A DNA stretch of 64,000 bases, from contig OZ076409.1 in the NCBI GenBank assembly GCA_964187785.1, forward strand, positions 44,022,001 through 44,086,000, written 5' to 3'. Every line of letters starts with the position of its first letter. The first letter of the stretch is position 1. Below the pieces are notes generated by a model. It had not been told where the DNA came from. It saw only the letters and a program-made list of their open reading frames with translations, and did not search any database. This document shows, piece after piece, positions 461 through 22,150 of this stretch. Origin of the DNA: Amphiscolops sp. MND2022 (Eukaryota). The position numbers and the translations under genes were made by a program.

Positions 461-1597
461 TATAAACCATTAGCCATCACTTAACCCTAACTTGGCCACT
501 GTGCCGAATTCGGCACATTTAGTTTCTGCAAATTCTAAACGCACCAGCTGACTTGTATGGTAAAGAAAACTCTTGAATAAGATATTCAGACGATATTGCA
601 TAGCATTCGGCGCCTTTTCACGGAATATTGACGTGATGTTGATGTCTCCGAAATCCAGAAAATGGGACCAAAAAATGAAAAAAATGAGTGCAGATTTTCA
701 GTTTTCGTTTGTGGCCCTTTTATCTCACTATAACATTGTTATCAACACAAGGTTGGTATCAACTGTCGGTATCAACATTGGGTCAAAGCGGCCCAGCATG
801 TTTTAAAACATGCTGAAAAGCAATCAGACACGACGCGTGCAAAGTTTTGGCGCAAAGTCCGGAGCCAGTGCGGCGAAGCAGTTTAAAAATTGATTTGAAA
901 GCCCTGATTCTCCTCTTCCGAACGCTGTATGAATCGTTTGTCGGACTGGAATAGCTTAGGAGATATTGCGGTTTAAAGTTTAAGCACCCGATTTTTGGAT
1001 GGATCCAGAATTTTCCTGGTCAACCAACTTAAAGTTAATGGCAACGCAAGAAACGGGTAACTGAACGACGATGGGTTTCACAAAACGACGATTCAGCAAA
1101 GAAGCGGCTTGAGTCGGAGCACAGCTCAAGGGTCGAAAAGCGAAGTCTTTTATACCAATTTCTTCCCAAAAAAATCTGTACAATCTAGCAATGCCAAAAA
1201 AGACAAGAAAGGCCCTCTCACAGGACTTTCGTGGAGTGAACATAAATAGGATAGAATATCGCATAGTGCCAAAAAGCGCCGAGATGCCTCTTTTGTGTAG
1301 TAGAGCTTCGTGTAAGCATTTTAGACGCATATTAGACGGGCTTCTCGACAAAACGAAACTATTGAAAAATCAATCGATTGAACGAGCAAATGGACGCTTC
1401 AGTTGAGAAAAAACTTCAGTAAAAACAGTACTGGTCTGCCATTTCAAAAAGCCTCCACTGAAAAGGTCAGTTTTTCAATTTCAAAGGCAAAAAAGACACC
1501 AATGGAGTACATTTCTCGAAAACTCTTCTCAAAAACTCAAGCAATGAAATAGGGAAAAACGTTGTTTTCATAGTTTAGAACTGAGTTAGTAACTAAC

Positions 1598-1949: not shown

Positions 1950-3974
1950 CTGAAACAAAACTAGATGTTTTTTCATTCATGTTTTTGACTTTTTTATCTA
2001 ATATATCTTTTCTATGTTTTATGTACTTTGGAAATTCTCGGACAACTCTCAAACTGGTCTATATATTTTGACAGACGACGTTTGAGTCGGAAAAATTCAC
2101 TTCCCCAAAGATGATTTATGACCTTAGCAAACGCTACATTTTAAACAGAGACCGATTAATACACCACAAATTTATGAGAAACAGACAACCTAGCACGATT
2201 TTATTACTGATTGATATAATTTTAGTCGATTTTCATCTAGAACCACGAACTAACAATTTTCGATTTTTAATCTCTAGTCCATGTGGTACAGCGTCAGTCA
2301 TGCATGCTGAGAAAAGTTTTGGTAGAGTTTGTAAATTGCAAAGTCAAAAACTGCTTATTGAACAATCGAAGTGAGACAAAATTTTAATTCTGTGGCCTCA
2401 ACTTGTTTCGCGGAAGCTCGCATGACTATCCTTCCATTAATGTGAGCATGTTTCCCTAGATTCTGAAAAACCAATGCACAACGTCAACTGTTGGATTCCA
2501 CACAAGATATTTTATCTGCACGTTTTTTCAATGTTTTTAGAAATGATACAGCCATAAAACAACCAAAACATCACAGACTCTACAGGAAAAAAATACAAGG
2601 ACGCATTAAAGCTACAATAAAAACCAACTGGTGTTCATTAGGAACTTACAAAATGGAGATTGATGGTAAATGCAGCAATGTACCCATCTTCTTACACGCC
2701 AATGGAAAGACGACCATGCTGGTGAAAAAAATCTGTTGCTACACATTGTCGCATTTCATGTTCATTTTCCTTTGTTAAACACAGACTGAAAATGTTAAGC
2801 GGGACAACGAATACACAACTGATTTTAACGCGAACATCAACACAGCGACAACTAAAGTCATACTTGCATTCTGAAAAGCAAAGTAGGGATATCTTTTATC
2901 AACTGAAATACGTCCTGTTTTCATCCGTATTAATAGAAGTTTGGCAAAAAATGTATATATTTTCATCGACAAAATCAAAGACTCTCTGCTCTCGAAACGC
3001 CTGAAACTAAAAGCCCATAAAACAGGTCAAAATGTTTTGAGCATGCAGTCTAAATTAATGCGGTCTATTACATGTTGTCGACGACTGGTAGGCCAAATAC
3101 CATTGATTGGCCTAACACCATTGATTAAGAATGTATCTGTTGAAAAAATTGTCGTGGAGTACTAGCAGCTTCTAGTATCTTTACATAAAATGCCTTCCGT
3201 AAGAATGTGTCATGTCATTTCCTGCTCTAGGAATGAGCCCCCTCAACGTATGGGCTCATTCATATATCTGCAACTGCAAAATACCGTGAAAATGAATATT
3301 ATCTACAAAAATAGACTTCATCTATCATTTCCACGGAATTTTTTTGATTAAATCATTCATAAAAACTTCCAGAAGCAAGTTTTAAAACTCCAAACTGATT
3401 TCATGATTTTAAAGAAACTGATAGCTGAAGTTTTGTATTTAAAAACAAGGCGAACTTGCTTCTACGTTTTACGTTAGCTAAAAAATCAAATAACAGCAGA
3501 TTTAGATTTTTTAGCTTCAACTTTTACGTAAAACGCAAATTACCTCGGTTATAACGTCAAAAATTCGGATGATGAAAAACCCGCATTCGCAAATTTTATA
3601 GAAAACCCGCCGATTTTTGGTGTTAACAGATGAGACTGGAGTGAAGTTTACCATTGATTGAGTTCTCCATTCGAGTTTTCTACCCAAAAAACTGTTCTTC
3701 GCAAAAAAAAACGTCAAAGAGGTGTCGACTGACAGGACTTCGCTGATGTTTTGCAGCACAAACCGTGAAAAATGAATACCTTGAACAGTACCAGTTATAG
3801 ATATAGTCTTGCGTTTTCATGGATTGGTTTCCCAACAAGTTAATGCGCCCATGCACACGGTAGACATTCAGTTTTCCCCGAGGAAATGGGCATTGACTGG
3901 CTGTCTTACAGTACAGATTAGAAAGCCACAAAAGGCGTATGGGCTGTTGTCAAGAAAAGACTGGCAAAACAGTT

Positions 3975-4309
3975 ACTTATATCTTCACTTTTAAGATGAG
4001 TATTTATGGCTGGCGGCTGGATGCAGGAATGGAGAGCAGTCAAGTCTTCGGAACATGGATCACAATCCTCAGATTAGTTCTCTCTTTTCTTATTGAAAAC
4101 ACAACCATGCAATTCTCTAGTTTTTGTCAGCACTGATGTTTTTTACTTCATAAATATTATTATAGTTATTTGTTCAAAGATAGATGCTGATTAAATAGTT
4201 AAAAGGTTAAAGTTCTGTCATAGGTAAAATAGTTTTAAGGTCAAATATTTAAGAGTTCTTTCAATCAGTTCTTTTGTCCTCAACATAGGAATGTTTCAGC
4301 TATGTTACA
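3975..4309 (-). repeat. 3' LTR (335 bp)
   Basis: No differences found by eye versus 17895-18229. Minus-strand termini TGTAAC...ATAAGT. Confidence 0.95.
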
Positions 4310-4321
4310 CTTCCTCTCATC
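4310..4321 (-). promoter_or_regulatory. Polypurine tract
   Basis: GATGAGAGGAAG immediately 5' of the 3' LTR on the minus strand. Confidence 0.8.
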
Positions 4322-4647
4322 GAGAAACTTCCGGCATCTGGAAAAAAGCCATCATACAGTCGGAGGAGTAGTGTAGTGGAGATTAGAAGCTGAAATTGCC
4401 AAGTTGAGTAGTCCACTTCCAATAATTCCATTGAAAGAGCCCAAGAGAAAAGTTTTGGAGAGCAGCACAAGTCCCAGTTTCATGTAGTTGTGATGAAGTT
4501 GTATATTTGATCCAGTCCAGTTGAATATTGTCGAGCCAAAGATTACTGCATTTATAATTTACATATACTGCAGAAGAAAATATATTAAAGGATTTGTTTT
4601 GATAAAGTTCGATGATGAATGAATAATTAAACTGAAGGATCGTGAAG

Positions 4648-6993
4648 TCAGGCAGTGATATCGACATGAACTGCCTCAATATCGCTTTGATCATGAACCA
4701 TTTGAGCAGGCCTAACTTGGGAGTTGCTATGTGGGACTATTAATGATGAGTGAAGGTTGTTGGCTGATTGGCAATCTTTGGATTGGGTCGTTGCTTGTTC
4801 AAACATTGAACTTGACATTATAGAGACTTTTGGTTTTGAACGTGAAAGATGATATATTGTTCCAAATTTTTTTTGAAATTTATCCTCAGCATGAGAGTCA
4901 GTTGTTTCCAATTTCATCACAGGTTTAGCGCGAACTCTTTTTTTGTTTTTATCAAGTAAAGATGGAAACAGTTTTGATGCCAAATTGTATCGATGATAAA
5001 TATACATAAAGATCAAGTGCAAAGCTGTCGATACAATGAACACAGTTAATGTCAGCATGAATGAAATTCGGAACGGAACGTATTGATTAAATTCTTTCGT
5101 TAAGGCTGGTTTCAAGAGTTTCATTTCTGATGCATATGGTCTGGCAATGTCGATCATGTGTTTGACTTCACGATTCTTTGGTCCTTTTGCTAACTGTAGC
5201 TTTACCTCTTTCAACAATTTCACTCCTGCTTCAGCTTTCGATGTGTAGAACGGTAATTCATCCAAAGGGGGGACTTCCATAACCAATGAAGCTATAGGAT
5301 TAGGCAGAGAAACTTGCAATTTTATTGATGGAATGTGAGCGCAACTTGATAAATCAGATCGGATTTTGATGTTGTCAGTCATAATTTGCATTCCACATGC
5401 TAAAGTGATGAGACATATGCGGCATCCGCGAAAAGAAGAGCCCTGAACAGATGAAGATGAAACTTCACGAAGGGTAACGGCGTGAGCGGATTGAATTAGC
5501 CAAATGCCATAGCCTAAGTTTGTTGCTTGTTCGATGGCAGGCAGTTGTACAATTGTAGTATCACATACTGCAAGAGCCTCTTAAGCTGTACTAGAATATA
5601 AAGTAGCGAGGCAAGATGAATGACCCATCTCTGTTGGAACAGATTCTGAACAGATTCGGTAACGAGATGAGCCAAGACAATGCTCAAACTGTTCAGCAGA
5701 GAGGACAGATGACTCCATGTGATCCTCCGACAAAGCTAAATATGGGGCTTCGATGTTCCATGTAAGAGCCGACTGAGGATCGTCTGGATACGGCATCGGA
5801 ATTAATTTGGCTTCATATACAGTAAAAACCGTCTGCTTAGATGCTAGCGGGATGTTTAGGGTCATCAAAAGACCTGCTTTAACCGTAATAGCATCTGCTA
5901 AGAGCTTGGAATCGAAGTAAGATAGCAAATCTGACATTGGAATAGCTAAAGACAGCCTATCCTCAGCCGTCGTCTGTGTCATAGCAACACTTCTAAGAAT
6001 AACCAGCAATGATTCTGTCGGTACTAAGGACATAGGTAAATGACCTCTAAGTATGACAGGAATCGAGTTTAGGATGTTCATACGGAATGCAAATAGCGCT
6101 GCGCGATAGCTCTTTACACTTGCATGTATCATTGCTAAGAGAGAAGAAAGGGTGTCGAAATTAAAGTTCAGTTGCTGGTTCGAAAATAGAAGCTGATTGC
6201 AGTCGCGAAGCACATGGAAATTGTGTTCGAAGATGTCAAATTGTTGTTGAATAATATTCCAGTTCGTATCCTGCGTTGCAACAAGTTCCCTTTGGATGTC
6301 GTGAAGGGCCGCCAATTCGTTTTCAACCATAAAAAATTTTTTGTCCGTAGATGTTGTAAATTCAGTTACATACTGGGTTAAAACGTCCTGGAAGTCAGAT
6401 AGTTTGCGAATGTTCTCGGCATTTGCCTTCGCATCGTCTTGGCAGGAACCAAAAATGCCTTGTAGTCCACAAGAGTCGGAACTACCAAGAGCCACTCCTC
6501 CTCCAAAAAGGCCGACTGCGGCAAGAGCCGCTAGTCCCACTTGGGATCCACGTCGGTGGCGAGTATTCCGCGGCTGTTGAGGAGGGGAAAGAAACATTGC
6601 TGTTTCATTGCGTAGGAGGGCAACATCGAGTTCCGCGGTGTGGATTTCATTTTCTATTTGATGTAACATCCAGGTGACATTGAACGGCGTGGAATTCGTT
6701 GAAAAGTGACTTGAAAAATCCAAGGGACAAAAAACAGATGGAAGTTCCCACATCGACGCGAGTTTGGCCATTAAGGCCACAATATCTGGTTTAAGTGCGA
6801 AGTCATAAGTCGGAAAGGGAACTAAAAATTCGACTTTTATAAATTTCTCCGCAAGCAAGATTTTGCTGCGTTCATGGAACAGAACACCCTTTTCTTGAAT
6901 TTCGTTGGGGTTATTGGAAGCTTCTAAATTAGAAAGCCACTCACTTTGAACTGAAGCAGGGGTGAAGAAAACCAGTAAGAACAAAACTAACAT
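4648..6993 (-). CDS. env: Envelope glycoprotein, class I fusion (F-like), ~781 codons, one in-frame TAA at 5581-5583
   Basis: Signal peptide MLVLFLLVFFTPASVQS; furin site RHRR (6561-6550) followed by fusion peptide GSQVGLAALAAVGLFGGGVALG; heptad region; Cys-rich region; TM ISFMLTLTVFIVSTALHLIFMYIY; cytoplasmic tail. ORFs 5581-6993 and 4648-5391 share a frame with 63 open codons between them. Confidence 0.88.
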
Positions 6994-7378
6994 TGATCCG
7001 TTTTGTTTTTTGTTTTTGTGTTTCCCCCTTTTTTTGATATTGAATAAAAGCGAAGAATTCTCGAATGAATACTATATCAACTATTTCGATCGATTTCAAA
7101 TGCAAGAATGGCACTTTGGGTATTTTTGGGGGCGGGGTTTGGGGATTTTTGAAAGATCACAAGAAATGTGATGCCATTTGTTTTCAGTATCCGGTGCCCG
7201 TTTGATATTTACAAAATTCGAGATGTTAAAGTTTGTTTTGCCAAGTCATGTTTACTGCACTGGTTGTTTGACCTGTGATTGAAAAGTCAGATTTTCGAAT
7301 TCGGACGATTGAAAGTGATCATGAAATGAACGGAATGTTTATTCAGTTGTCAAGCGTTTATCCGAGTTTTTTAGTAAA

Positions 7379-7792
7379 ATGAAAATTCTGAATGTGCTGG
7401 CGGCAATCTGCGTTTTTGCTATAATGGAAGCATGCATGCAAAAGGAGTGGAGAGGGCACAGAATAACGTGTTGTGCTAATGGAACGTCAATGGAAACACA
7501 TACAGGGCAAAAGATTTGGGTCGCGCAGAGGCCTGCTATCTGTGATGTAACAAGTGCCAATGAAAAGTCCGCCAAGTCCAAGAGCTCAAAAATTCTCAAA
7601 GGCTTGATCATCCTTGGCACGTTGATGCTCTGTGCAGGCTGTTGCTTAAAAAAATTTCCTTACCGAAAAGTGTGGCAAATGCTATCAAAATGTTGTGCTT
7701 CGAAAATCGATGGTACAGAACAAGAAGGCATCGAAATCAAAGTAATCAAAAAGGAAGCAAGTCCAAAACTGGCACGCAGTCAGTCTTTTTAG
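7379..7792 (+). CDS. Antisense accessory ORF, 137-aa predicted type I membrane protein
   Basis: ATG start, signal-like MKILNVLAAICVFAIMEAC, Cys-containing ectodomain with NGT sequon, hydrophobic ILKGLIILGTLMLCAGCCL followed by basic KKFPYRK. Confidence 0.65.
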   Translation: MKILNVLAAICVFAIMEACMQKEWRGHRITCCANGTSMETHTGQKIWVAQRPAICDVTSANEKSAKSKSSKILKGLIILGTLMLCAGCCLKKFPYRKVWQMLSKCCASKIDGTEQEGIEIKVIKKEASPKLARSQSF

Positions 7793-8153
7793 ACTAAATC
7801 AGAAAACGAGTTTTGTTGTATTTACGTCGTCGTAAAAGTACTGAAAGTTTCGTTACATGTACTCGCGTAATGATACAGTTAACCGTTTGTTACTTTTGTT
7901 ATGTTTGTTTTAAGGCACGAGTTTTAAATTAAAACTTGCAAATTCGATGCCCCTCTTTTTTTTTATTTTTTTTTGAAGTGCAGCAAAACATAAGCCAAAA
8001 TTATTTGAAGCAAGCAAATTAGTAGAGAGGAAAAGCTATTGAAAGAAAACGGACAATATTCGAAAATTTAAACTGACAAGAGAACCGTTGAAATTAGTCA
8101 AGGTAGAAACAAATGGAAGATAACTGAAGGTTATACATGATAGGCGGAAATGT

Positions 8154-8438
8154 TCAGACAGTTTGATAAGCATTAAGCAGAGTCTTCTTCAGCTGGCGAA
8201 ATTTGATGAGTGTCCTCAAACCGCCGAATTTCGGGACAGGGAAATCCTGTCTTTGAAATAGAAGGACAATTTCAATCCATTTAGGGGAACCGTAGTCCAG
8301 CTGCTGCAGCGTTCCATCTGATAAGATTAACGAAATACTCATGAGCTCGTCAACTTTGATACGGATGATTGGGTAGTCTGCGCCATTATGCATACACGTC
8401 CATGTGTAGTGAAACGTAAACTCCATGTCGTTAAGCAT
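8154..8438 (-). CDS. Small element-sense accessory ORF, ~94 aa, unknown function
   Basis: ATG at 8438 (MLNDMEFTFHYTW...), globular-looking composition, divergent from the + strand gene starting at 8673. Confidence 0.4.
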   Translation of the reverse strand: MLNDMEFTFHYTWTCMHNGADYPIIRIKVDELMSISLILSDGTLQQLDYGSPKWIEIVLLFQRQDFPVPKFGGLRTLIKFRQLKKTLLNAYQTV

Positions 8439-8672
8439 GGTGAGGGCAAAAGAGATTACTTGAAGGTAGTATGAATGCTTTAAGACAACTGAGAACAAGG
8501 GTGGCAATAGCAAATAATGAATGGAAGAAAATGTCAATCTAAACGTTCGAATAAGAATCATCAGTCGAAATGTCACGCAAAGAGATCATGTTTTGTTTGT
8601 TGCGCACTGGTGACCTTTTGTAATTTGCAAAGCAAACAAACAAACAAAGTAAATTGGATTTCAGAGAGCAAG

Positions 8673-9964
8673 ATGGAACAAACTATGTTTGATGCGATTA
8701 TAAAAATGAAGGCAACTGGTGAAATAAATGCGTTAGTCTGTCAAACAAGGAAACAGAAATTTTTGTGGAAAACTCGGCTCAGTTTCTTCACTCTCAGCAG
8801 TACGGGTGAGTTACTATGGAATGGTCTAAAAGTCCCAACAACAGAGGAGCTAACACTAGTGTTATGGCCTTTTCATGAGACTGAGAAGAAACACGTATTA
8901 GACGAAAAGGTACTACGTAAAGTCTTATCAGACAAAGGATACGCCCTACCTACATTCATTGGGGGCCTTGAACGAGCGGTGAAAGTGTAAGTAATAATTA
9001 ATATGAAAGTCATCAAAATTTAGCATAGATTCACATGGTATTCCATGACTTCAGATTTCTTCACGATTGTCCGGAATGCTTTTGGACAAGGCATGAGGGA
9101 TACCGATGGGAAAGGGCGGCTAGTGTATCAATAATGGAGCGACAAGATGCCTGTAAAAGGTTTGCCCTGACGTGGGAAAAGTTGCAAGATGGGCCAGAAG
9201 GTGGAGGGTTAGTCGGTTTAGGTGAACCTCCTGTCGCATCCTGCAAATCTGTTTTTGCGCAGGGTGGAGGAAAATGCTGGGCATCGAGTATATTTTTCCT
9301 ACTGACTGGGAAAAAAAGCGGTTAGGTCGAAAAACAAGATTTAAAATAAGAAAATTGCTGTGAAAGCCAGGTGACTTTTTTGTTGCAGATAAGAAAAAGG
9401 ATGGTGCGGCACTGAAACGCATCAGAGATACGATCGGAAATCATATGAAAACAGATGAATTTAAGAAGTCATGCGTGGAATGTTTGGATTATGCTCCCAA
9501 TGAATTCGAGCTTGATGCTATGCTGCGATCGAATTTGGACATTAGTGAACCTTGGGTAAAAAACTTTTTGAGAATTTTGAAGAATGTCAAATGATTTATG
9601 GAGAACATATGATTCATGATGTTCTAGATGTTAGGAACTGCACAAGTGTTAGGCTGGGACATCTTGGTGTTCTGGCGTTACACTGTCAAAAAAGGTTGGA
9701 TTCGGTACCCGGCAAAAGCAAGAGGCCCATCATCAAGAGTTGCTTTCCTATTCCATGTGATCCATTCGGAAAAGGAGAAAAAATTCCACTGCGAGCCGTT
9801 GATAGATTGGCCCATTGAAAAGTAAGTATTGACACAAAAGAAACAGGTAAAGTAAGAAAAAGAAGATAATTTCGAAATATGTATGTAGCAACGATCCAAC
9901 GTATAGAGGGAGGGAGGCAGGCGAAGGGCCATCCGCGAAGAATGCGAGAAAGTACTGGAACTGA
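8673..9964 (+). CDS. Antisense spliced accessory gene: HHCC zinc-binding motif plus OTU-like cysteine protease, 338 aa; exons 8673-8986, 9055-9320, 9389-9555, 9628-9821, 9889-9964
   Basis: Four GT-AG introns of 68, 68, 72 and 67 nt, all phase-compatible, give a 1017-nt ORF. Motifs: H-x5-H-x35-CPEC; GGGKCWASSIFFLLTG; LKRIRDTIGNHM; GTAQVLGWDILVF; FHCEPL. Confidence 0.8.
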
Positions 9965-10428
9965 TCATTGCATCGACTGATTATCATAGTCAATATCATC
10001 AAAACTAGTCATCTCAGAAAATTTAAGAGTGTTTGTGTTTCAAATGTGAAGGAAACTAGGAGAAAAGCAAGTAGGAAGCGTGCGAGCGTAGCAGGATCGA
10101 TTGCGGCAATAGGGAGGCCACGCAATTCGGCGAAACTTGGAGAAATCCCTTCAATGAGTGACGGCGGCGAAGGTGTCAAATAGGACGCGGAAAAAATATT
10201 TTTTATCTCCGATTCTACAAAGGAGGGTACCAAACGAAAGAACAGCACATTCTAAGACCTACCACCGAAAATGTAGGTTCAATGCGATAATTTAACAGCG
10301 AAAAATGCCCTTGCAAGAGGTCGATTTTCGAGTTTTGTGTGATCTTGTTGCATTGGATTGTAAAGAATAGCCTGGATCAGCGTGAAGTGGGCTGGAAGGC
10401 ACTGCACAAACTCAAAGCAGTACTGCTA

Positions 10429-13400
10429 TTAACGAGAAGGCTGAACAATTGTGATTGTAATCTGAGACTTTGAAAAAATACGATATAAAATCGAAAAAAC
10501 AGTTGGCCAATGTAAGCGGTCACGACCACTTCCAAGTCTTGGAATGCTGAGCTTTCGAATATTAGAGCGCTCTAGATGCTGACGCAAGGCCATCAAGCTC
10601 AATTCAAGCGATTCATACGTAGATTTATGAAAGAATCTTGTTTTTGTGACTAAGTTATAGATGTAACGTTGATTAAATCGGTCGAAATAAGAGACAAGTG
10701 ATCCCTGCGGTAAACGTTTTTGAGCCTGAGAACGTAGTTGACGAAGCTCCGGGTTACGATATGCGATTGCAGAGGCAAGGCCTCGCTTCATATGAAAATC
10801 TGCTGAAACACAGTGAGCAATAGATTCAGGAGATTCTAAAATATTCGAAGAGAAACAAAAGTTTGGATGAATGTCTGAAGAAATAGAATTTAAAACATTG
10901 GATGAGGACAGTCTTTTCTTCAAATTACGGAAATTATAGCGTGCTTTTACTTCCTTTTGATGCTGTAGATACTCCTGAGGAGATTGCGGTGTCAGCTGTT
11001 GCGCTGTAGTTGGGTGGACCCGTGGACTTGCATCAGAAGGAGGTCGAGTTCGTTGACAAGATTCAAGTAAGATCGTGCGCTTATCTGCTTTTGGTAAGCT
11101 TGTCCCTGGGACCTGAGTCAACTGTGTTCTATGTGGAGGTTGTCCGTAAGTTTTTGGTCCACGTCCAATAAATACTGGAACTGTTTGACGGTTCTCATCA
11201 AAACTTAGTTGTCTATCAGTTCTACGTAAAAGAGTAGTCGGAGTTTTCGGACTGACTGTGGGTAGGTCTTGCTCTGGCGAGGCAGTTATGAAGGCACCAG
11301 CGGATTGTGCAGAATCTTCATTAGAAGAGTCATCTGAAGAAGCCCGAGAATCCGTGGGCTCAGCTGCAAGTTGCGCTGGTGGTGCCGTATCCTCGTCCTG
11401 GGCTGGCAGAGCGGGAAGCGCTGGAGCCGCTGCTACAGCTGGTAGGGGTGGAACTGCCGGCCCTGGAGCTGGTCCTACCGGAATAACAGCTGGTGCGATA
11501 GGAAAACTAAGAGAAACTGTGACCGGTGGAGGCTGTTCTTCGTTTTGAACTACACAAGGCGCCTCTGAGGGAGGCAACAAAAGTGTTGGAATGCTTTCAT
11601 CAAAAATAGCTGGTTCGCCTCTGAAGCGTCCAAGCATAGGATCGCGTTGAAATTTATCCGGGTCAATTTGCTGTAAGTCCTCAACTTGATATTGCGGTAC
11701 GACGGGTCTAAGACGAATGCGATGTACGCATTGAGTGTAGTTTGTACCGACCTTACGAATTATGTAATTAGAATTCGTTAAGACTTGTTCGACTCGATAC
11801 AATGGTAACCAAATAGGAAGGAACTTACTCGAAAAATCAGACTGCGTCATTAGTTTTGGATTCAAAAGAAGACAAAAGGAAAACTGTTTCAGAGGTTGCG
11901 CTTCTGCTTTGTAATCATAATATGCGCGGTATCTATTATACATTTCAGTCAATTTACTTTTCGCTTCGGAAAATTTTTGTAACATGGCGTCCTGCAATGC
12001 AAGCACATATTCTGTAGTAGGTTGCTCACGTTCAAGCGAAGTTTTATTAAACCTGAGATCCAATGGTTTCAAGGGTTCACGACCATGAAACAATGCGGTC
12101 GGACTTGTCCCTATTGCAAAATGGTAAGAAGTATTGTGAATAAATGCAGCAAGTCGCACGTATTTGTACCAGTCATTCCACTGCTCTGTGGTGTTCAACT
12201 TCAAAATTCGTTTGAGGGCGCTATGCGAGCGCTCCACACTACCTACAGTTTGAGGGTGTTTTAGACTGGCATGTTCCAATTTTATTTCCAAAAGTTTAGT
12301 CAATTCGTGCATCAATTCACTCACAAAAGTAGTACCCAAGTCGGATAAAATTGTTTTTGGAAGATAACTATGACGGAAAAATATCGACGCAAGTTCTCGT
12401 GCAACCGTTTCCGATCGCCCATTAATAAGTGGGACTGCGAAAAGATATTTTGTAAATACATCAATACCCGTAAGGACATAACGGTAGAGCGGGGACTGTA
12501 ACGGACCGACAAGGTCAATTTGTAACATTTCGCCCGGGTAAGATTTCAATGAGGAGACCGGTTGCAACGGAGTTTTCAGATTTTTGCTTGGTACACGTTT
12601 CAGTTGCAAGCATTGTAGACAGTTTTGGATAGTTGACGTTAAGTATTCTGTAAAATTCCGAAAATAAAAGCGTTTTCTAAATTCTTCAACCGTTTTATTG
12701 ATACCCATATGGCCTGCTGTAGGCGAGTTATGCAAGCGGTAAATTACTTCGCGCCAAAGGGATTTAGGAACACAGTACTGTTTGTGTTGAACTTTGCCTT
12801 GATCGTCATAAAAAAGTCGATAAAGAACATTTTCCTCAATGATTAGGCGCGGAAACTGTTTACGATATTTTCGCAAAGCTATCGGTAAATTTGGCGACAT
12901 GTCCGGCGAACCTCGGTCTTTCCATTGCATTACTTCACGAATGATCTCGTCTTGATTTTGTACTAATGCGAGGTCTATTGGCTCCGACCGATTAGGCAAA
13001 TCATCAAGAATGTCACTAAATTCGCCTGACGAGACTAGGTTTATTTGATTCACTTGACAAAATGAGTAAAATCCGGTTATTTCGAGAGACGGTTCCGTCT
13101 GCGCTTCAGTTGTTTTCTGTAAAAATTGTTCATACAGACCGAATTCTTTCAACTGAGAAATTAAGCGTTCATCAGCCTTGTCGTCTATGGCTTCTGGAAA
13201 AGTTTGTCTACTTGAAATATTAGATAAAGCGACATCCGGCGCTTTCGCTTCTTTTTCTATTTCAATCTCTTTAATAGGTATCCGATCAGTCAATTTAAGA
13301 GAAAGAGTTAAAGAAGGGTCGGTTTGCATTCGTGATAAAAAATCTGCTGCCGAATTTGCTTTACCAGGAATATGAGCAAGGAGAATGTTAAAAGACAAAA

Positions 13401-15924
13401 CTCTATCCAAACAGTTCCATAGCGATGGGTGAATACTTTTAGATTGGAAAAATTGCGTGAGACTACGGTTATCGGTTAAAACTAGCACAGGTTTAGTGGC
13501 GCCCCATATAAAATGTGCAAAATGATCTAAGGCGAAATAGAGAGCAAGAAATTCTTTATAGTAAACCGAAAATTTCAATTGCGTCGGACCAAACAATCGA
13601 GATCCAAAGGAGACCGGCGCGTATACTTTTTTTTCTTTTCCTTGTTGATCTAACAAGTAGTCCTCAATCATGAGAACAAAACCTGTACCATGATAACTAG
13701 CGTCACAAAGAAGAACGTATTGGAGGCCAGGTTTGGCCAATCGCAAAGTAGAATTGGTAGCATTTCGTAAATCTGTTTTCAATACATCTAATGCTTCGCT
13801 ATGTTCTTTCGTGGTTTTAAATTCTACATCTTTTCGCAAAAGTTTATAAAATGGTAGCAATTTTTGACCCAAGTTGGGCATGAATGAACGGAAAAATTGG
13901 ACAAATCCGATCAATCTCTTCACTTGTTTAACTGTTTCTGGCATTCTGATTTTTTCGAGGAATTTGTTTATTTTGTCTGCTTCAGGTGAGATTCCTTTAG
14001 GAGTTATAGTGCTTCCCAAATAATCAATTTTTGTTGTCCCAAATTCGCATTTGTGAGCAGACAATTTTAATCCCGATGCTCGCAGGCAATCAAATATTTT
14101 CTATAAAGCAGGAATCATTTCATCAAAGGTGTTTACTCCCATGGCAATGTCGTCCATGAATTGAGTACAAACATTGGCAGCAAGACATTTATCTAGATAA
14201 TGTTTGACGAACGAACTAAATCCAGTGACGGATTTGTTCAGGCCTTGGGCTAAACAATTATAAGCAAATGTGCGCGAAGCGAAATTAAATGCCAACAATT
14301 GTACCGAAAGGTCATCCGCCATTTGAACGCAATGGTATGCTTGCGAACAATCAAGTTTACAAAATAGTTTCTTCCCCGCAAAGTGGTTTGTCGCATCGGT
14401 CATGTTTGAAATTGGGAAATTGCTATTTAAGTAATCATGGCGTAGGAGGTGATTGACTCTTCTGAGATCAATAAGTATGCGAAGCTTGCCAGATGGTTTG
14501 CGATGTACAAATATCGGACTAGAATATTTGGAATGTGACAGCGTAGTTATGATGTTAAAATATTGTAATAACGCCAATTCAACTAAGATTTCGTCACGCA
14601 AATGAATCGGTGCTGGTGGACCTTGAACGTATACCGGAAGTTGATGAGCAGGCGTTAATTTGATCTTCAATTCGGTATTATACCCAACATCGAAGCGATG
14701 TTTTGCAAACACGTCATGATATTCAACAAGAAAATCCTCCAATTTTGACTTTTCATCAGCGCTCAAAACACATGTATCCCACGCAAATTTTTTCAAAAAT
14801 TCTTGTCTATCGTGTAAATTAGTTTTTGGGTTTAGTTTTTCACAACGACGAAGTTGCAGAATTTGATCGTAAATTTCACGTTGAAGCGGTGACAAATTTG
14901 AAAGATCCGTACATGTTTCGGGAGTCGGAAACCAAAGTTTTGAGTAATCTGGTGGCGGCCGACCATTGTCAGTGTCGAATTTTTGAAAATGTATATCGTG
15001 AATTAGCTGATTGAGTTCGTTTTCAAAATCGTCAGGGTTTCTCATTTTTGCTAGGGCCAATAATTGTGGATCTATTTCAAGGAGATAATCGGCCTGTGAC
15101 TCGCGCAAAATTTCAAAACGTGCAATTTGTTTTTTGCTATTTAGCGTAATCTGGGAATCAGACAAATTGATCGCTGATATGTATATTTTATTGTCATTAT
15201 CCATCTTGCTCAGAGACGAAGTTAATGCAATATTGGCTGTTTCCTCCAGATTCTTGTTTGGAATTACTAATCCTGTGCAATTAGCAAACTGGTCAGTATA
15301 TTCATCCAAATAGCATTCAAGGAGGACTTGTTGTTGCGGTCCAATATTTACTTTTTTGCTCAGTAGGATAGGAATATTTTTCATTTTTTTTACAAATTGT
15401 CGTTTTTTCCCAGCGTCCGGTTTCATTTCATTGAGTTGAACTGTAAAATCAGGCAGTTTCAGTAAGTTGTTTTTTGGGTCGATCGTAATATTTTGTTTTT
15501 TAAAGAAAGAGTTGCCCAAAATTACACTATTCATTTTTGGTAGCACAAGAAAACTGTCGGTAAAGGAATGAATTCCAATACAGAATGTGAGATTCACCTG
15601 ATTGTCAACTGACACTCGTTGTCCTGAAGCCATGCGGACAGACGTAAAATTTGGAGTTTCATTTTTAATTAATTCAGGATGATTCGCTCGTAATTCATCG
15701 TATAAATTTTGTGGCAATGCATTAGCACAGGCGCCAGTATCAATTAGGGCTCTCCGGCGAATGTGCGGAGAAAATTTTAATTTAACGTAAGAAAGATTTT
15801 CACCTTCAAGAGGCAAAACAGCGCATATATCTGGCTCATTTAATTCTATGTTACGTGTGTGGGGCTCATAAGACTGGTTTTCATGTAGAGAAGTAGGCGG
15901 TGGAATCTTGTGCTGCTTTTTTAG
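10429..15924 (-). CDS. pol: Pol polyprotein (PR, dUTPase-like spacer, RT, RNase H, integrase, Pro/Ala linker, macrodomain); one in-frame TAG at 14101-14103
   Basis: ALIDTGA (protease), FMDD (RT), LLCDAS / TDNRSL (RNase H), H..H..CLQC plus IDLVG, SDLGT, VER (integrase). The two listed ORFs share a frame and are separated by one stop and 12 open codons. Confidence 0.95.
10432..10860 (-). other. TARG1/OARD1 (Poa1p-like) macrodomain at the Pol C-terminus
   Basis: SIAHCVSADFHMKRGLA...RYIYNLVTK..FFHKSTYESLELSL...LSIPRLGSGRDRLHW..V..I...F....ITI, collinear with TARG1 SLAHCISED.RMGAGIA...RYIYYLITK...HKPTYENL..SL...LSMPRIGCGLDRLQW. Confidence 0.88.
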
Positions 15925-17189
15925 TTTTTTTGATTTTGATTGAACGGCATTTGAGCTCCTCGTTGTGGAGGGTTACCTTGCGCGGTACAATCTTTTGCTA
16001 GATGATTCGGATATCCGCAATTATAACAAGTATGTGTTGATTGTTGCGTATAAGGCATGTAATGCGGATCCGGAGTAAAAACTTCAAATGTAGTTTGCGA
16101 TGAACCTTGATTAGAATTTCCTTGTTGAAAGTTGTCCTGATTCGGATTTGACCATTGTTGCTGGCTATTTGGATTCTGATTAAAATTCGAGTTTTGGTAA
16201 TTTTGATTCGACTGATTGTAATTTCTGCCGTAATTGTTCTGCCAAGGTCGTCCACGCCCTTGGTAACCTCGACCTCGGTTTCCACGGTTATTGCCGCGAT
16301 ACCGACCACGGTAGTTTCCTCGATTTCCGCGATAGCCTTGGCCACGATAGTTTTGAGAGCCGCGTTGCGAATTGTTTTGGTTTTGCTGGTTTTGTAACTG
16401 AGTGGTAAAATTCGTAGCTTGCGCTTCTAGTTTTTTGGACATTTCGTTCAGTCTATTGTCCATAGTTTCTTGACTATGGCTCAATTTTGTGAGAGCTGTA
16501 ACTAAAGTATCAGATACTGAAGGGCGCACTTCACTGAAAGCATCCATAACCGAATCTTCAACCTTACAAAGGTTATAGATCGAAAGTTGTTTCCGAGCGA
16601 ATATACACAAATCTTCAACCGTTGTATTTTCCGGTTGTTCCAAAAGTTTCGCTCGAAGCCAGCCCGGCATATTTTTTATAAATTGTCTCCGAATCTGAGC
16701 GGAGCGCGCTTGTTGCGCTGAATGAATTATTTCGGCTCTTCGGGCGGTTTCAGAATCAAATCGTGTTTGTTCCACTGCTGCGTCCGGTGCGGCACCATCA
16801 ATTGGTGCTACAGCAGGTGGATTTGGATCGGGATAAGCTTTAAGTGCTTTCGTTTGTAACGTGACTAAAAAATTCTCTGGATTGTCTGTTTTCGGATCGA
16901 ATTTCAAGTTTTCCAATTTAAGCATATGCAATTCCTGAAGTCTCGGATTACAAAAATGGTCACGAAGAGCTGTCAAAGAGAGATCTAAGTCCGCACGTGT
17001 CGCTACCGGTAGTGTTTGAAAATAGCGGAGCGCAGCGTCTCGAAGATGAAGTTGTAAAAAGTTGGCTTGCTGCGCTTGCGGTACCGCAGCTACTGCTAAG
17101 ATACTTCGCAACAAATGTTCAAATTCACGAAAATTTTCCTTTTCTAAACCCGAGTAGGGTGTTAGCGAGAGTTGAGGTAAAGCAGCCAT
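15921..17189 (-). CDS. gag: Gag, 422 aa
   Basis: ATG at 17189 (MAALPQLS); capsid-like helical region, R/G/N/Q-rich tract, zinc knuckle CYNCGYPNHLAKDC. Confidence 0.92.
   Translation of the reverse strand: MAALPQLSLTPYSGLEKENFREFEHLLRSILAVAAVPQAQQANFLQLHLRDAALRYFQTLPVATRADLDLSLTALRDHFCNPRLQELHMLKLENLKFDPKTDNPENFLVTLQTKALKAYPDPNPPAVAPIDGAAPDAAVEQTRFDSETARRAEIIHSAQQARSAQIRRQFIKNMPGWLRAKLLEQPENTTVEDLCIFARKQLSIYNLCKVEDSVMDAFSEVRPSVSDTLVTALTKLSHSQETMDNRLNEMSKKLEAQATNFTTQLQNQQNQNNSQRGSQNYRGQGYRGNRGNYRGRYRGNNRGNRGRGYQGRGRPWQNNYGRNYNQSNQNYQNSNFNQNPNSQQQWSNPNQDNFQQGNSNQGSSQTTFEVFTPDPHYMPYTQQSTHTCYNCGYPNHLAKDCTAQGNPPQRGAQMPFNQNQKN
15924..15930 (-). promoter_or_regulatory. -1 ribosomal frameshift slippery heptamer A AAA AAC
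   Basis: Directly before the gag TAA; the -1 frame is open from here into the protease. Confidence 0.8.
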
Positions 17190-17882
17190 GATTTTAAAAG
17201 TTAAGTGTGAAATAGAGAGTGACGAATAAAACAAACTAAGATTGTAGTGAAGAAAAAATTGAAAAATTGTCTAGCAAAGTGTGTAAAATGCAGTCGAACA
17301 CTGACGTGTAGTTTGAACTTCGAAAACTGAACAACGAATATAAAACTTTCAAGGCGAAACAAGAAAGGTTTGAGATCAAATTTATAGTGTTTTTGCAACA
17401 ATAACGATTTGCAGTGAAAAGAGAAAATTTGCAATTGGAAAAAAGTAAAAAGATTGCAGAAATTCACAGTTGAGTTTCGAAAAGAGTAATAGCTGTGAGA
17501 CACAGTTCAGTTGAAAATGAAAACAATTGAAGCACTCATGAAATTCGAAAACTACACTATATCACTTTACTGCTTCAGAAGTGAATCAGACTCACCGACT
17601 GTATTCGTACTGGCATTTTGAAGTCATCATGAAATTGAATACAAATATCGGAGCATCAACATTCGCCCAATTGGAGAAAGTCACCAAAATTCATCATTGA
17701 TTTCTGTAGTTTCCAGTTTCTGCCGTGCCGTGTTTGTTTCAGTTGTTACAGCCTCATGGATCGGGTGCTGGTCGTGGATGATGTGGCTGGAACACCGCGG
17801 GTGGTTGGTCGGGGGTCTCGTGTGAGCGTTTCAACACAAAAAGGAGAGTTCTTCTCTGTATTGCATAGTGAGGATTGTTTTG

Positions 17883-17894
17883 CTCCTGTCACCA
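17883..17894 (-). promoter_or_regulatory. Primer-binding site TGGTGACAGGAG (possibly tRNA-Leu type)
   Basis: TGG start immediately after the 5' LTR; the same 12-mer follows the 5' LTR of the second Gypsy (53338-53349). Confidence 0.8.
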
Positions 17895-18229
17895 ACTTAT
17901 ATCTTCACTTTTAAGATGAGTATTTATGGCTGGCGGCTGGATGCAGGAATGGAGAGCAGTCAAGTCTTCGGAACATGGATCACAATCCTCAGATTAGTTC
18001 TCTCTTTTCTTATTGAAAACACAACCATGCAATTCTCTAGTTTTTGTCAGCACTGATGTTTTTTACTTCATAAATATTATTATAGTTATTTGTTCAAAGA
18101 TAGATGCTGATTAAATAGTTAAAAGGTTAAAGTTCTGTCATAGGTAAAATAGTTTTAAGGTCAAATATTTAAGAGTTCTTTCAATCAGTTCTTTTGTCCT
18201 CAACATAGGAATGTTTCAGCTATGTTACA
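17895..18229 (-). repeat. 5' LTR (335 bp)
   Basis: Direct repeat of 3975-4309, followed by the PBS. Confidence 0.95.
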
Positions 18230-18582
18230 CAGTTTCTTGAGAAAATAGGAAAAAAGTTCAATAAATGTAGAATTTCGCCGAATTTGAGGTGGTCCAAAAC
18301 GGTTTAGTATTATTTCACCCCACGTTCATTTCACCCCAAATTCATTTCACCCCACGTTCATTTCACCTCACACTTAAATTATCAAATGCCTCTCAGATAA
18401 ATGACTATTGCCACCCAATTTCAATCTAATAGAAAAGCGTCTTGGTTCTGATTACCAAATAGACACAGAGGCGAAGCGGTGCTTCGCAACACATGACGAA
18501 GACATCGATTATTTTAATATGCGTATATATATTATTTTAATCGCATGCGTATATATTCAACAGTTCAACTTTGTTCAATAAC

Positions 18583-19806: not shown

Positions 19807-20045
19807 CAGTAGGCATCAAAGTTTAATTGTTGATTAACGTGAGACGCTTTTGTATAATTACAATATGGTGTGAAATAAAAGTGGGGTGAAATTAATGGGG
19901 GGTGAAATGAACGTGGGCTGAAATCATATGGTGTGAAATGAAAGTGGGGTGAAATGAATGTGGGGTGAAATGAATGTGGGGTGAAATGAACGTGGGGTGA
20001 AATGAACGTGGGGTGAAATGATTTTGGGTGAAATGAACGCACACC

Positions 20046-20837
20046 GTCCAAAACCTCTACGAGAGCATTTCTAGCCGTTAGAAATCAGTTGTAGCTAATA
20101 GTACACAAATTACACATTTGTTTCATATTGTTTCCCAATAAAATTCATGCCGTAGTCAACTTTTTGGAACTATACTGTGTCAAAGTATTTAGAAACAATT
20201 TTGCTAAAAAAAAGAAAGCTTCTTTGGATTTCATTAGGATTATGTGGAATTTTATTCTGAACTTCTAAGGACAGTGATTAAAAAGTTGGAAAATCCAAAT
20301 TTACGACTAAAATTCAAAAAGCAGTTTTCGAAAATTAGGCAATGTTCCAATGAACGTTTTCGCTGAAGCCAGGACTAAACAAGATGGGAACGTCTGAAGT
20401 CGGCGCTATACCTAAGGCTCACAAATCGCCCAAATATGGGCATATTTGGGCGATTTGTGAGCCTTAGGTATAGCGCCGACTTCAGACGTTCCCATCTTGT
20501 TTGGTCCTGGCTTCAGCGAAAACGTTCATTGGAACATTGCCTAATTTTCAAAAACTGCTTTTTCAGTTATTTTAGTCGTAAATTTGGATTTTCCAACTTT
20601 TTAATCACTGTCCTTAGAAGTTCAGAATAAAATTCCACATAATCTTAATGAAATCCAAAGAAGCTTTCTTTTTTTTTAGCAAAATTGTTTCTAAATACTT
20701 TGACACAGTATAGTTCCAAAAAGTTGACTACGGCATGAATTTTATTGGGAAACAATATGAAACAAATGTGTAATTTGTCTACTATTAGGTACAACTGATT
20801 TCTAACGGCTAGAAATGCTCTCGTAGAGGTTTTGGAC
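20046..20837. repeat. Near-perfect palindrome, ~395-bp arms, 2-nt spacer
   Basis: Centre CGCCCAAATATG-GG-CATATTTGGGCG (spacer 20439-20440); arms are reverse complements with a few substitutions/indels. Confidence 0.95.
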
Positions 20838-22150
20838 GCTTTAATGAAAAGCTGGAAGAAAAAATTTGAAATACCCAAAGATGGCTTTTCGTGCTCGGAG
20901 AACGCTTCAGAAGTTCGGATATAGCGTGCTAAGACAAATTCAAGCGCTTGTTTTTGAGCCTCCGCCTTCTCCTTTTGAAGGTGCATAGTGCCGAAAAATC
21001 TGAAGGGGGATTTTCTAAGAAAATCCTTTCAAAACAGTAAAAAAAATTACGGAAATCTCACAAAGCCGAAAGGGGGACCCTTCTGCTTTGGAATGGTTCA
21101 GTATTTCTTGTTAGAAGCTTTGGATGTGTTCACAACCAAGTACTGAGTACTTATGGTAAAAGTGTACATAGTTCGCAAATAGTGGACCACTCAGAGTGAG
21201 GCTGACGAAAAATGACCCTGTCAGAACAAAACTTCTCGTTTTGCGACAAAAGCGGCTGAGACATAATTCAAACTGTTAACCTTAATTAACATGGCTGAGT
21301 TCCAAAATCTGACTAGAAATTTTCAATCATTGATGTCTACACAGCTATGCATACCAAAGACATTAACTATAGCACGTTTGAAAGGTCTGGTGATAGGCTA
21401 TGATTTTGATTAGGTGAGCCCCAGTCGCCGCGCGCCTCATTCTTCAGAATTTTAGTTCCCTTTTGTAGTACCGCCGTTTTCAGGCCATTCCACACTTCGG
21501 GGAGTTATTAGCAACATCATTTGCTAATGCCTTTGCCGTTTACATCAAACTCGGTACCAACAAATGGTTGAATAAAAATGGTGCTAAAGAATATGGGCTA
21601 CTGGCAAAACAGATCAGGAGTTGAAAAAGGTAGGCTGTTTTAAAGTAGCGCTAGGCTATTTAGGGTTAAATGACACTCGCTCTTAGGGTTCCGGAAAATT
21701 GGAGATAAAAAGTCAAAATTTAACTAATGTTTTCGCATTGATGAAACAGAGGACGCTAGGTCTATATGTATTGCTGTTTTGAGGAGGAACTGTACGTGAT
21801 ACACTCATGAAAACAAGCGAATGCCTAGTGAGAAAGTGGCCGACTTATGTCGAGTAGCCTAACTGAAGTAAAGAGTCGAAGCATTTGTTCACATGCAGCG
21901 CTTTGCTTCACTAGTCAACTTAGTCCACATTCAATGGGAATGATACAGATTCGCAAAGAAATGTTCATCGCCCAAAAATATGCATTTCGCATCATTTATA
22001 TCAGCGATACATTAGCAATTGAGCTATGTGGGCATTCAATTGCATGCAAATAATTAGCATGCAAATAAAATTTCCAATGTAGCAAAACTTTTATAATAGA
22101 TACTATTTTGTTTGCAGAGAACTCTACGTAAAAAAGCATTATTTAATTAC

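Follow-up and report, generated by a model that had tools for sequence, protein, structure and literature searches.

Positions 4648..6993 of a contig segment from Amphiscolops sp. MND2022 (the window, meaning the whole 64,000-nucleotide stretch of OZ076409.1 that was analyzed) hold a long minus-strand reading frame, which raises the questions of what kind of protein it encodes, what it belongs to and whether its presence marks a special event. A first-pass annotation had read the frame as a class I F-type envelope gene gained by capture. We conclude that it is very probably the envelope gene of a Ty3/gypsy retrotransposon of the env-bearing type, its product being a class I fusogen whose fold is that of paramyxo-/pneumovirus/baculovirus F, and that the unusual part is the element, with its Pol macrodomain, its spacer and an antisense ORF (ORF C), not the env. 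The env frame contains the following features.

4648..6993, minus strand: F-type env, 781 codons plus TGA, with one in-frame stop (frame reading, models, conservation)
6943..6993, minus strand: probable signal peptide, aa 1-17 (hydropathy only)
6550..6561, minus strand: furin-type site RHRR, aa 145-148 (RxxR in 44/44 relatives)
6478..6549, minus strand: Gly/Ala-rich fusion peptide, aa 149-172 (KD19 up to 1.96; G-L/F-F-G conserved)
6049..6444, minus strand: HR1 and central helix, aa 184-315 (model helices; antiparallel packing with HR2)
5314..5961, minus strand: beta-rich, Cys-rich head domains, aa 345-560 (pLDDT; 8 near-invariant Cys)
5581..5583, minus strand: in-frame TAA, env codon 471 (frame reading)
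5077..5259, minus strand: HR2/membrane-proximal helices, aa 579-639 (interface residues, complex model)
4999..5067, minus strand: TM helix, aa ~643-665 (KD19 2.13; TM in 44/44 relatives)
4651..4998, minus strand: cytoplasmic tail, aa 666-781, 116 aa (poorly conserved; low pLDDT)

The signal peptide, RHRR site, Gly/Ala-rich fusion peptide, long heptad region, Cys-rich domain, TM segment and ~115-aa tail of the first-pass annotation were all recovered, the signal peptide as a hydrophobic N-terminus, the heptad region corresponding to two long model helices (aa 184-262 and 268-315) and the Cys-rich domain to 8 Cys at aa 439-551. The head domains were modeled with ten-residue pLDDT blocks mostly of 87-95 (lowest 81), and the N-terminal subunit carries three N-glycosylation sequons. 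What that feature list left out is the TAA at codon 471. Because of this stop, the product of the window copy would be 470 aa long and have no TM, and this copy is unable to make a membrane-anchored fusogen; the C-terminal anchor that it lacks is present in 44/44 relatives. Read-through of the stop was considered and dropped, as 0/14 other cluster members listed end there.

Searches for env relatives returned 151 at E<=1e-3 among 7,999 candidates and a wider family of 2,613 representatives at the same threshold, with identities grading from 96% to 23%. Conservation was analyzed in 44 non-redundant relatives, gene calls of at least 680 aa that are therefore stop-free by selection. In this set RxxR was found in 44/44 (R-x-K/R-R in 34/44), a TM in 44/44, each of 12 ectodomain Cys in 42-44/44 and a hydrophobic N-terminus in 32/44, and the tail ranged from 41 to 179 aa with a column conservation of 0.22. 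The number of relatives and the conserved RxxR, TM and ectodomain Cys demonstrate that the frame did not arise by chance. Of 15 members listed from the 90% env cluster, which has 82 in all, 5 are full-length and stop-free, and the suggestion that all copies might be disrupted does not hold.

At the sequence level, the window env matched no Pfam fusion family at E<=1 and 0 PDB sequences; Baculo_F was found in only 1/44 env relatives, below the cut-off, which was passed by 2/23 distant relatives. Fold searches used the AF2 model of a natural stop-free relative, P0002 (mean pLDDT 73.9). All 39/39 listed Foldseek rows against the PDB were paramyxo-/pneumovirus F (best E 6.4e-7), with modest TMq values of 0.16-0.25. 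In BFVD the best rows had E 2e-21 for chu-like glycoproteins and 5e-17 for baculovirus F, and an 801-aa abalone herpesvirus protein also matched (E 1.9e-17). In VIA each of the top 6 rows was an F protein, with Z from 8.3 down to 6.8 and 286-357 residues aligned at an rmsd of 5.8-29 A, the first unrelated row scoring Z 6.6 against 8.3 for the best F, and the Atlas returned Fusion_gly at 0.92 and Baculo_F at 0.91. Modeling of three HR1 and three HR2 chains predicted a six-chain bundle with an ipSAE of 0.75 compared with 0.01 for the best control (mark reached by 51/78 solved and 2/108 mismatched pairs), with contact agreement between runs of at least 86%, partner pLDDT of at least 72 and antiparallel contacts; the score of this predicted trimeric bundle may reflect its resemblance to F bundles already solved. 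The proposal of an F-type rather than a retroviral SU/TM architecture is thus borne out by structure, and the similarity to viral fusion proteins on which it depended was found. Paramyxovirus/pneumovirus F and baculovirus F (Ld130-type) share with the window env the fold, the F2/F1 cleavage layout and HR1/HR2. The listed viral matches differ in showing only 8-15% identity to the env, which is retrotransposon encoded, and the element carries no large attachment glycoprotein.

The env comes third among the ORFs of a Ty3/gypsy element of 14.3 kb that has a gag-pol-env layout on the minus strand and in which the hallmarks of an LTR element (two LTRs, PBS, PPT and TSD) are present.

18230..18234, no strand: right TSD copy, CAGTT on the plus strand, identical to the left copy
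17895..18229, minus strand: 5' LTR, 335 bp, TGTAAC...TAAGT (100% identity to the 3' LTR)
17877..17894, minus strand: tRNA-Leu-like PBS, TGG start directly after the LTR (sequence)
15921..17189, minus strand: gag, 422 aa, open, with a CCHC zinc knuckle (PF00098 E 2.5e-5)
15924..15930, minus strand: A AAA AAC heptamer ahead of the gag stop (sequence)
10429..15972, minus strand: pol, PR-dUTPase-like-RT-RNase H-integrase-linker-macrodomain (Pfam; catalytic motifs present)
15118..15363, minus strand: degenerate dUTPase-like domain between PR and RT (PF00692 E 0.0016, below cut-off)
14101-14103, minus strand: in-frame TAG of pol, inside RT (stop position in frame)
10432..10860, minus strand: TARG1/OARD1-type macrodomain at the Pol C-terminus (E 8e-22 to human OARD1; 1e-7 to 5m31)
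4310..4318, minus strand: polypurine tract ahead of the 3' LTR (sequence)
3975..4309, minus strand: 3' LTR, 335 bp, identical to the 5' LTR
3970..3974, no strand: left TSD copy, CAGTT on the plus strand, 5-bp target duplication

The window copy is a recent, non-autonomous insertion with two in-frame stops, one in env and one in pol. In a comparison by eye, the PBS shows two mismatches to the tRNA-Leu 3' ends tabulated in PMC13524379. The 90% cluster of gag has 87 members. As pol lies in the -1 frame relative to gag, the heptamer is likely the frameshift site, at which ribosomes would shift from gag into pol; no stable frameshift-stimulating RNA structure was detected downstream of it (z +1.12). 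The dUTPase-like region is conserved across the pols of the family and matched a PDB dUTPase at E 0.046. As a separate observation, a marine metagenome DNA run from a single study (word share 0.11) contained contigs at 85% or more in 30/30 bins of the element.

Pfam placed gypsy-type domains in the order PR-RT-RH-INT, and named Pol neighbors included Tf2-12- and K02A2.6-like proteins at 24-33%, with no retroviral name among them. A dual RNase H domain is the criterion for Retroviridae and lokiretroviruses (PMC9040795), and a "mini" domain after RNase H, with no second RNase H-like fold, is that for "ancient" errantiviruses. In pol, Pfam found one RNase H, followed by a 210-aa bridge to the integrase. 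In the operational sense of PMC13524379, the element is probably an "ancient errantivirus." It shares with the F-type members of that group (Chary and Hayashi, eLife 2026) the gag-pol-env order, LTRs, a tRNA PBS, multiple similar copies and, judged by Pfam, a single RNase H. Its env has their furin site, fusion peptide, head, stalk, membrane-proximal helix and TM, as well as a probable signal peptide. It differs from them in its 3.4-kb pol-env spacer and 14.3-kb length, in its C-terminal TARG1-type macrodomain and dUTPase-like domain, and in a head-to-head antisense membrane-protein ORF and a 116-aa env tail. The non-insect prefilter of that survey capped the pol-env distance at 1 kb and the total length at 10 kb, with some groups extended manually; "macrodomain," "macro domain" and "dUTPase" are absent from its main text, acoel terms do not occur in its text or 7 supplements, and Xenacoelomorpha is not among its groups. 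TelKA of bdelloid rotifers (PMC5408684), also of Ty3/gypsy type, likewise places a dUTPase after PR and ahead of RT, and its env, of ~600 aa as opposed to 781 codons here, encodes a class I F resembling that of paramyxoviruses, in which RXXR, a fusion peptide, a coiled coil, cysteines and a TM are present; the extra ORFs of TelKA are ORF3 types, and PMC5408684 contains no macro-domain passage.

The macrodomain resembles the ADP-ribosylhydrolases TARG1/OARD1 (C6orf130) and DarG in its OARD1 match (E 8e-22) and catalytic pattern, and differs from them in forming the C-terminal part of a Ty3/gypsy Pol fusion, behind the integrase. Domains like OARD1 are also present in some L2/CR1 elements and in the automated annotation of insect Gypsy Pol. 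The pattern TKx(30,35)Px[IL]GxGxD, which spans the TARG1 catalytic residues K84 and D125 (PMC6397177), was found in the macrodomain of the window copy; 9/17 family macrodomains have it, including this one, and it is missing in 8/17. Judging from this pattern, the domain would most likely strip host ADP-ribose marks off element proteins or cDNA. Fish epsilon-like ERVs with macro-domain ORFs (PMC4977317) provide a precedent for macro domains in retroelements.

Both the type and the history of the env could be read otherwise. If the fusogen were class I but resembled HA or retroviral TM instead, this would account for the match of the family profile to influenza HA2 (E 0.0074, covering the fusion peptide and the first helix), for HA being the sole PDB sequence-profile signal among the best 60 rows, for an Atlas HA cluster at 0.88 and for foamy virus Env at Z 5.8 in VIA. 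However, neither type is among the 39 listed Foldseek PDB rows, the HA2 match spans only ~80 positions, and an architecture in which a short N-terminal subunit precedes a long C-terminal one and the Cys head is beta-rich agrees with F; we rejected the HA2 match as a local resemblance of fusion peptide and helix, and this disfavored reading is scarcely credible. The proposal that a single gypsy lineage recently captured an F gene from an exogenous mononegavirus, chuvirus, baculovirus or mollusc herpesvirus could draw on the nearest structures being viral, including the abalone herpesvirus protein and chu-like glycoproteins, and on the 3.4-kb spacer and purine tracts (7021-7035 and 7950-7964) upstream of env, which could mark a modular addition. 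Against this, identity to all listed viral matches is only 8-15%, the family is deep (the 96% to 23% gradient across 2,613 representatives), env and pol relatives lie on equal-sized contigs in 6 pairs (by eye, a putative linkage), and viral contigs scanned with the env alignment and pol yielded no relative. In addition, F-type envs are an old, widespread part of Ty3/gypsy elements across animals, and env and pol trees of F-type errantiviruses are congruent (PMC13524379). A recent capture is therefore very unlikely, and the view of the env as a special acquisition finds no support, given the missing close donor virus, the depth of the family and this precedent. Since Ty3/gypsy elements with an F-type env have already been described from across the animals, the window env adds a member to a known kind.

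The region between pol and env is long and contains short ORFs.

6994..10428, no strand: pol-env spacer, 3.4 kb, with short ORFs on both strands (ORFs recur in other subfamily copies)
9035..9325, plus strand: putative antisense ORF, 96 aa, Cys-rich (5-member cluster; no Pfam)
8517..8990, plus strand: putative antisense ORF A, 157 aa (Pfam and Atlas searches gave nothing usable)
8154..8561, minus strand: putative sense ORF B, 135 aa (8-member cluster, near-identical copies)
7379..7792, plus strand: antisense ORF C, 137 aa (L001 has a homolog that matches it in position and orientation)

ORF C lies head to head with env across a 385-bp gap and has a hydrophobic N-terminus, a ~50-aa Cys ectodomain with an N-x-T sequon, a TM, a juxtamembrane Cys and a basic tail. 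A metagenome scan gave 2 loci among 39 candidates (L001 and L002), and only L001 includes DNA upstream of env. There, a homolog matched ORF C at 25% over 81 aa (E 1e-7) without a DNA match, scoring 33.1 bits compared with 27.3 for the best shuffle (0/300 shuffles reached it; 69 kb). The two share orientation and a similar distance to the env ATG (455 versus 416 nt), and both keep Cys, Trp, the N-x-T sequon and a TM (KD19 2.19 and 2.53) followed by Cys and basic residues. L001 is the sole relative behind this conservation and is decayed, having no clear signal peptide or start upstream. Viral contigs scanned with ORF C likewise yielded no relative. ORFs A and B and the 96-aa ORF had no match in L001 or L002, both of which lack the corresponding region. 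A common C-terminal motif of ORFs A and B, suspected by eye, was rejected (BLASTP E 1.9).

We tentatively regard ORF C as most likely encoding a membrane protein with an accessory role in the entry or surface cycle. Were it instead a chance antisense frame in inert filler, the element would be a standard errantivirus whose intergenic region happens to be long, and several results would be in keeping with this: the single diverged homolog, the absence of a Pfam match, a structure model with a pLDDT of 45, a 90% cluster of 4 compared with 82 for env, and a protein search that gave nothing more distant than near-identical copies (1 match among 14 candidates). However, the L001 match is at the protein level without DNA similarity and beats 300/300 shuffles, and orientation, env distance, Cys, Trp, N-x-T and TM are kept in L001. 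Moreover, the strand opposite ORF C is closed in the window, and therefore ORF C is no shadow of a sense gene; a chance frame is unlikely. We consider it rather more doubtful still that what retains Env is a role in fusing cells or interfering with receptors, to the benefit of host or element, with a FAST-like ORF C doing the transfer in place of particle entry. A TM followed by Cys and basic residues is partly like FAST/sORF2, and the Env tail is long and unconstrained, as that proposal might expect. In contrast, 105/105 sORF2/FAST-like ORFs are forward oriented with ~30-aa ectodomains and were chosen by a myristoylation motif (PMC11952523), whereas ORF C is antisense, lacks the motif and an MG start, and has a ~50-aa ectodomain with an N-glycan sequon; the env, too, sits in a multicopy mobile element and not at a single-copy host locus. 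The Drosophila MDG1-group sORF2s are likewise small TM proteins of LTR elements, from env-less elements (PMC11952523), unlike ORF C beside its full F env. Retand plant Gypsy elements similarly have a long post-pol region with antisense ORFs, although these encode TRP28, a probable DNA-binding domain (PMC11963269), and ORF C a membrane protein.

Returning to Env as a particle fusogen, we infer from the family that in intact copies it would enter the secretory path, trimerize and be cleaved at RxxR into a disulfide-linked F2 (~130 aa) and F1. The fusion peptide would then insert in the target membrane and Env would refold to the HR1/HR2 six-helix bundle, so that Env could deliver capsids made in somatic cells to further cells, probably those of the germ line. 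The env would most likely be expressed on its own mRNA, through splicing or an internal promoter in the 385-bp gap, which could also drive the divergent ORF C. Tor elements have an internal env promoter (PMC4402516); in the env-ORF C gap of the window element and L001 we found no TATA box and no clear splice acceptor. A fuller scheme, also rather doubtful, is a "complex" errantivirus, in which an F-type Env and an antisense small glycoprotein would share a divergent internal promoter, the latter acting as attachment factor or fusion trigger, and a Pol TARG1-type hydrolase would counter host ADP-ribosylation. The partnering of paramyxovirus F by G/HN serves as the model for the proposed ORF C-Env pairing.

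Taken alone, the env is one more branch in a known picture. The element is an example of an invertebrate retrotransposon that carries accessory genes, as complex retroviruses do, and its long pol-env spacer indicates that env-bearing elements can escape distance-limited surveys. If ORF C does partner Env, it would be a dedicated entry cofactor in a Ty3/gypsy element, and such a cofactor would bear on how an F fusogen works when no large attachment protein accompanies it. Activity of the macrodomain, if present, would point to ADP-ribosylation as an anti-retrotransposon defense in the host.

Re-reading the minus-strand frame reproduced exactly the limits that the first-pass annotation had given for the envelope gene (env), 4648-6993. 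Translated from 6993 to 4648 (-), env has 781 codons followed by TGA and is interrupted by a single TAA, codon 471 (5581-5583); as read from the sequence, the product of this copy would terminate ahead of the transmembrane segment (TM). The gene belongs to a Ty3/gypsy LTR retrotransposon with the following features.

3975-18229, minus strand: LTR element, with env as its last ORF
10432-10860, minus strand: TARG1/OARD1-type macrodomain, at the Pol C terminus behind integrase and a long linker
7379-7792, plus strand: ORF C, 137 aa, read away from env (head-to-head), with a gap of 385 bp to the env ATG
env start, minus strand: hydrophobic N terminus, putative signal peptide (hydropathy only)
env aa 145-148, minus strand: RHRR (sequence)
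env aa 149-172, minus strand: Gly/Ala-rich hydrophobic segment (sequence)
env aa 439-551, minus strand: eight cysteines (sequence)
env aa ~643-665, minus strand: TM (sequence)
env C terminus, minus strand: tail of 116 aa (sequence)

Sequence searches placed the env of this copy in no fusion family and gave 0 matches among PDB sequences. Baculo_F was matched by sequence in 1 of 44 relatives, below the cut-off, and in 2 of 23 distant relatives, above it, and the only PDB signal among the matches listed for the env family profile was a weak one to influenza HA2 (E 0.0074, ~80 positions). The HA2 match covers env aa 158-235, the fusion peptide and first helix. The identity of the fold was settled by searching with the AlphaFold2 model predicted for a natural env relative that has no stop (mean pLDDT 73.9, pTM 0.59). 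Of the PDB matches listed by Foldseek, all 39 were F proteins of paramyxoviruses or pneumoviruses (best E 6.4e-7; TMq 0.16-0.25). In BFVD, the best matches (E 2e-21 to 9e-17) comprised chu-like glycoproteins, baculovirus F and a protein of an abalone herpesvirus. A Foldseek-independent structure search returned F proteins in all of its top six rows, at middling Z values (8.3-6.8; first unrelated row, 6.6), and Atlas gave 0.92 for Fusion_gly and 0.91 for Baculo_F. A complex of three chains of env aa 184-315 and three of aa 562-640 was predicted with a score of 0.75, whereas the best of 3 controls gave 0.01. This six-chain job differs from the calibration pairs, among which 51 of 78 solved ones and 2 of 108 mismatched ones came up to the same mark, and it may pass through likeness to solved F bundles; the complex model had antiparallel contacts, with runs agreeing to at least 86% and a partner pLDDT of at least 72. 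The earlier reading of env as an F-type class I fusogen was thus right, the Foldseek check that it had proposed leading to paramyxovirus/pneumovirus F and baculovirus F. The third-best BFVD match (E 1.9e-17, 15% identity) is A0A145VUZ2, an uncharacterised 801-aa abalone herpesvirus protein, and ranid herpesvirus proteins likewise match the env model there; these model-based matches suggest that F-like proteins are present in abalone and ranid herpesviruses.

Scoring of 7,999 candidates gave 151 env relatives at E<=1e-3 (120 listed), and a profile search gave 2,613 representatives of 50% clusters. Stop-free copies, which the first-pass annotation had proposed to seek, exist: the 90% cluster of env has 82 members, and among the 15 listed there are 5 that are full-length and uninterrupted (90-99% identity). 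Its suggestion of an env capture fared less well, as no donor virus is in view and the viral matches are only 8-15% identical. For conservation, 79 relatives of at least 680 aa were reduced to 44 by removing those >85% alike, all stop-free by selection. All 44 have a furin-type RxxR site ahead of the fusion peptide, of the form R-x-K/R-R in 34, and all 44 have a TM; twelve ectodomain cysteines are each retained in 42-44, and the tail is unconstrained. Judged from these preselected sequences, the protein shows the conservation expected under selection. By eye, six env/pol pairs of relatives lie on contigs of equal size, a hint that diverged envs, too, belong to elements of this kind.

The LTRs of the element are 335 bp long and identical, so insertion was recent; 5-bp duplications flank them, and a TGG primer site and purine tract are present. 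These LTRs (3975-4309 and 17895-18229) have 5' TG but 3' AGT instead of CA. The gag gene is open (422 aa, CCHC knuckle), and pol, shifted by -1 relative to gag after an A AAA AAC heptamer, encodes PR, dUTPase-like, RT, RNase H and integrase domains in that order, with one TAG within RT. Because of the two stops, in env and pol, this copy is not autonomous. Named neighbours of Pol are distant (24-33% identity), among them Tf2-12- and K02A2.6-like proteins.

Outside the element, the window consists of other repeats (classes judged by eye), and no host gene was seen among ORFs of at least 150 aa. A near-perfect (97%) 800-bp palindrome at 20045-20838 adjoins 16-bp tandem repeats (19846-20053; inverted copy at 18308-18395), an arrangement that looks MITE- or foldback-like from its sequence. 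A ~560-bp repeat with internal inverted repeats occurs in three copies at 23537-24678 and 33218-34014. Decayed RT-bearing non-LTR, Copia-like and BEL/Pao-like elements (translations, classed by eye) lie at 25099-26550, 28878-32691 and 59066-63999. A ~1.5-kb direct repeat (40383-41892 and 53365-54911; 88-93% identity, 13 kb apart) perhaps represents the LTRs of another, older large element.

The macrodomain of Pol matches human OARD1/TARG1 at E 8e-22. BLASTP detected it in 18 of 82 family Pol proteins, many of them truncated, and it is present in 15 of the 21 that reach at least 380 aa beyond integrase, a count from lists intersected by eye and a profile built from the macrodomain matches themselves. 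The TARG1 catalytic pattern described in PMC6397177 is intact in this copy; over the family, 9 of 17 domains keep it and the other 8 are degenerate. TARG1 is also described as stripping ADP-ribose off DNA (PMC8501950), and macro-domain ORFs are reported from fish ERVs (PMC4977317). A partial literature search, judged from listings, found no published account of a macrodomain in Gypsy Pol. Macrodomains do occur in automated annotations of insect Gypsy Pol; for this reason, and because the search was partial, we do not claim the association as unseen.

The hydrophobic N terminus of ORF C is followed by a short stretch rich in cysteines that contains an N-x-T sequon, then by a TM, and then by cysteines and basic residues. 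Only one relative, the metagenome locus L001, includes upstream DNA, so conservation of ORF C was scored in 1 of 1; the L001 env is ~53% identical to that of the window and broken into three frames. A homologue of ORF C at L001 188-427 (-) has the same orientation and place relative to env. The two frames are 25% identical over 81 aa (E 1e-7; score attained by none of 300 shuffles), with no similarity at the DNA level. The cysteines, sequon and TM are retained, and the distance between a conserved W-R and the env ATG is 416 nt in one element versus 455 nt in the other. In the window, the strand opposite ORF C is closed. The L001 frame shows neither a clear start nor a clear signal peptide. Of 14 candidates in a protein search, the only match was a near-identical copy; Pfam gave no match, and the structure model was unusable. 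As a sORF2/FAST-like protein, ORF C fails on orientation, length and myristoylation features as described in PMC11952523. Plant Retand elements also have antisense ORFs behind pol, but with a different domain (PMC11963269). For a membrane-protein gene lying antisense next to an F env, the titles and abstract openings listed by a literature search yielded no published account.

Elsewhere in the spacer between pol and env, two short ORFs, divergent and overlapping, occupy 8154-8990. One, ORF A, was likened by eye to the helical zinc-binding region of an integrase, two histidines included, a likeness supported by no tool. The candidate spacer ORFs other than ORF C have near-identical copies. Two A-run/G-run purine tracts, at 7021-7035, just upstream of the env ATG, and 7950-7964 (-), are possible central PPTs or remnants of an older 3' end.

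The mode of action of class I F proteins is established, and we apply it to env by analogy. In intact copies, the Env precursor would be trimeric and would be cleaved at RxxR, after which the fusion peptide would be inserted and the protein would refold to a six-helix bundle. Env lies 3.4 kb behind pol with its own ATG and putative signal peptide and therefore needs its own mRNA. For the tunicate Tor elements, splicing or an internal promoter is described (PMC4402516); neither a TATA box nor a clear splice acceptor was found in the env-ORF C gap of the window element or L001. Errantivirus Env in Drosophila allows germ-line infection by particles of somatic origin; for most other elements the mechanism is unknown (PMC13524379).

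The same source describes 1,512 env-carrying Ty3/gypsy elements from most animal phyla, many with F-type envs in which the furin site and fusion peptide are conserved, and argues that the env-Ty3/gypsy association is ancient (PMC13524379). The rotifer TelKA elements carry a paramyxovirus-like F plus a dUTPase between PR and RT (PMC5408684). The type of env is therefore already known from both sets. A relative of the element may be among the 1,512, a set with which it was compared by description. Relative to known env carriers, the distinct points of the element are the Pol macrodomain and ORF C, not env itself.
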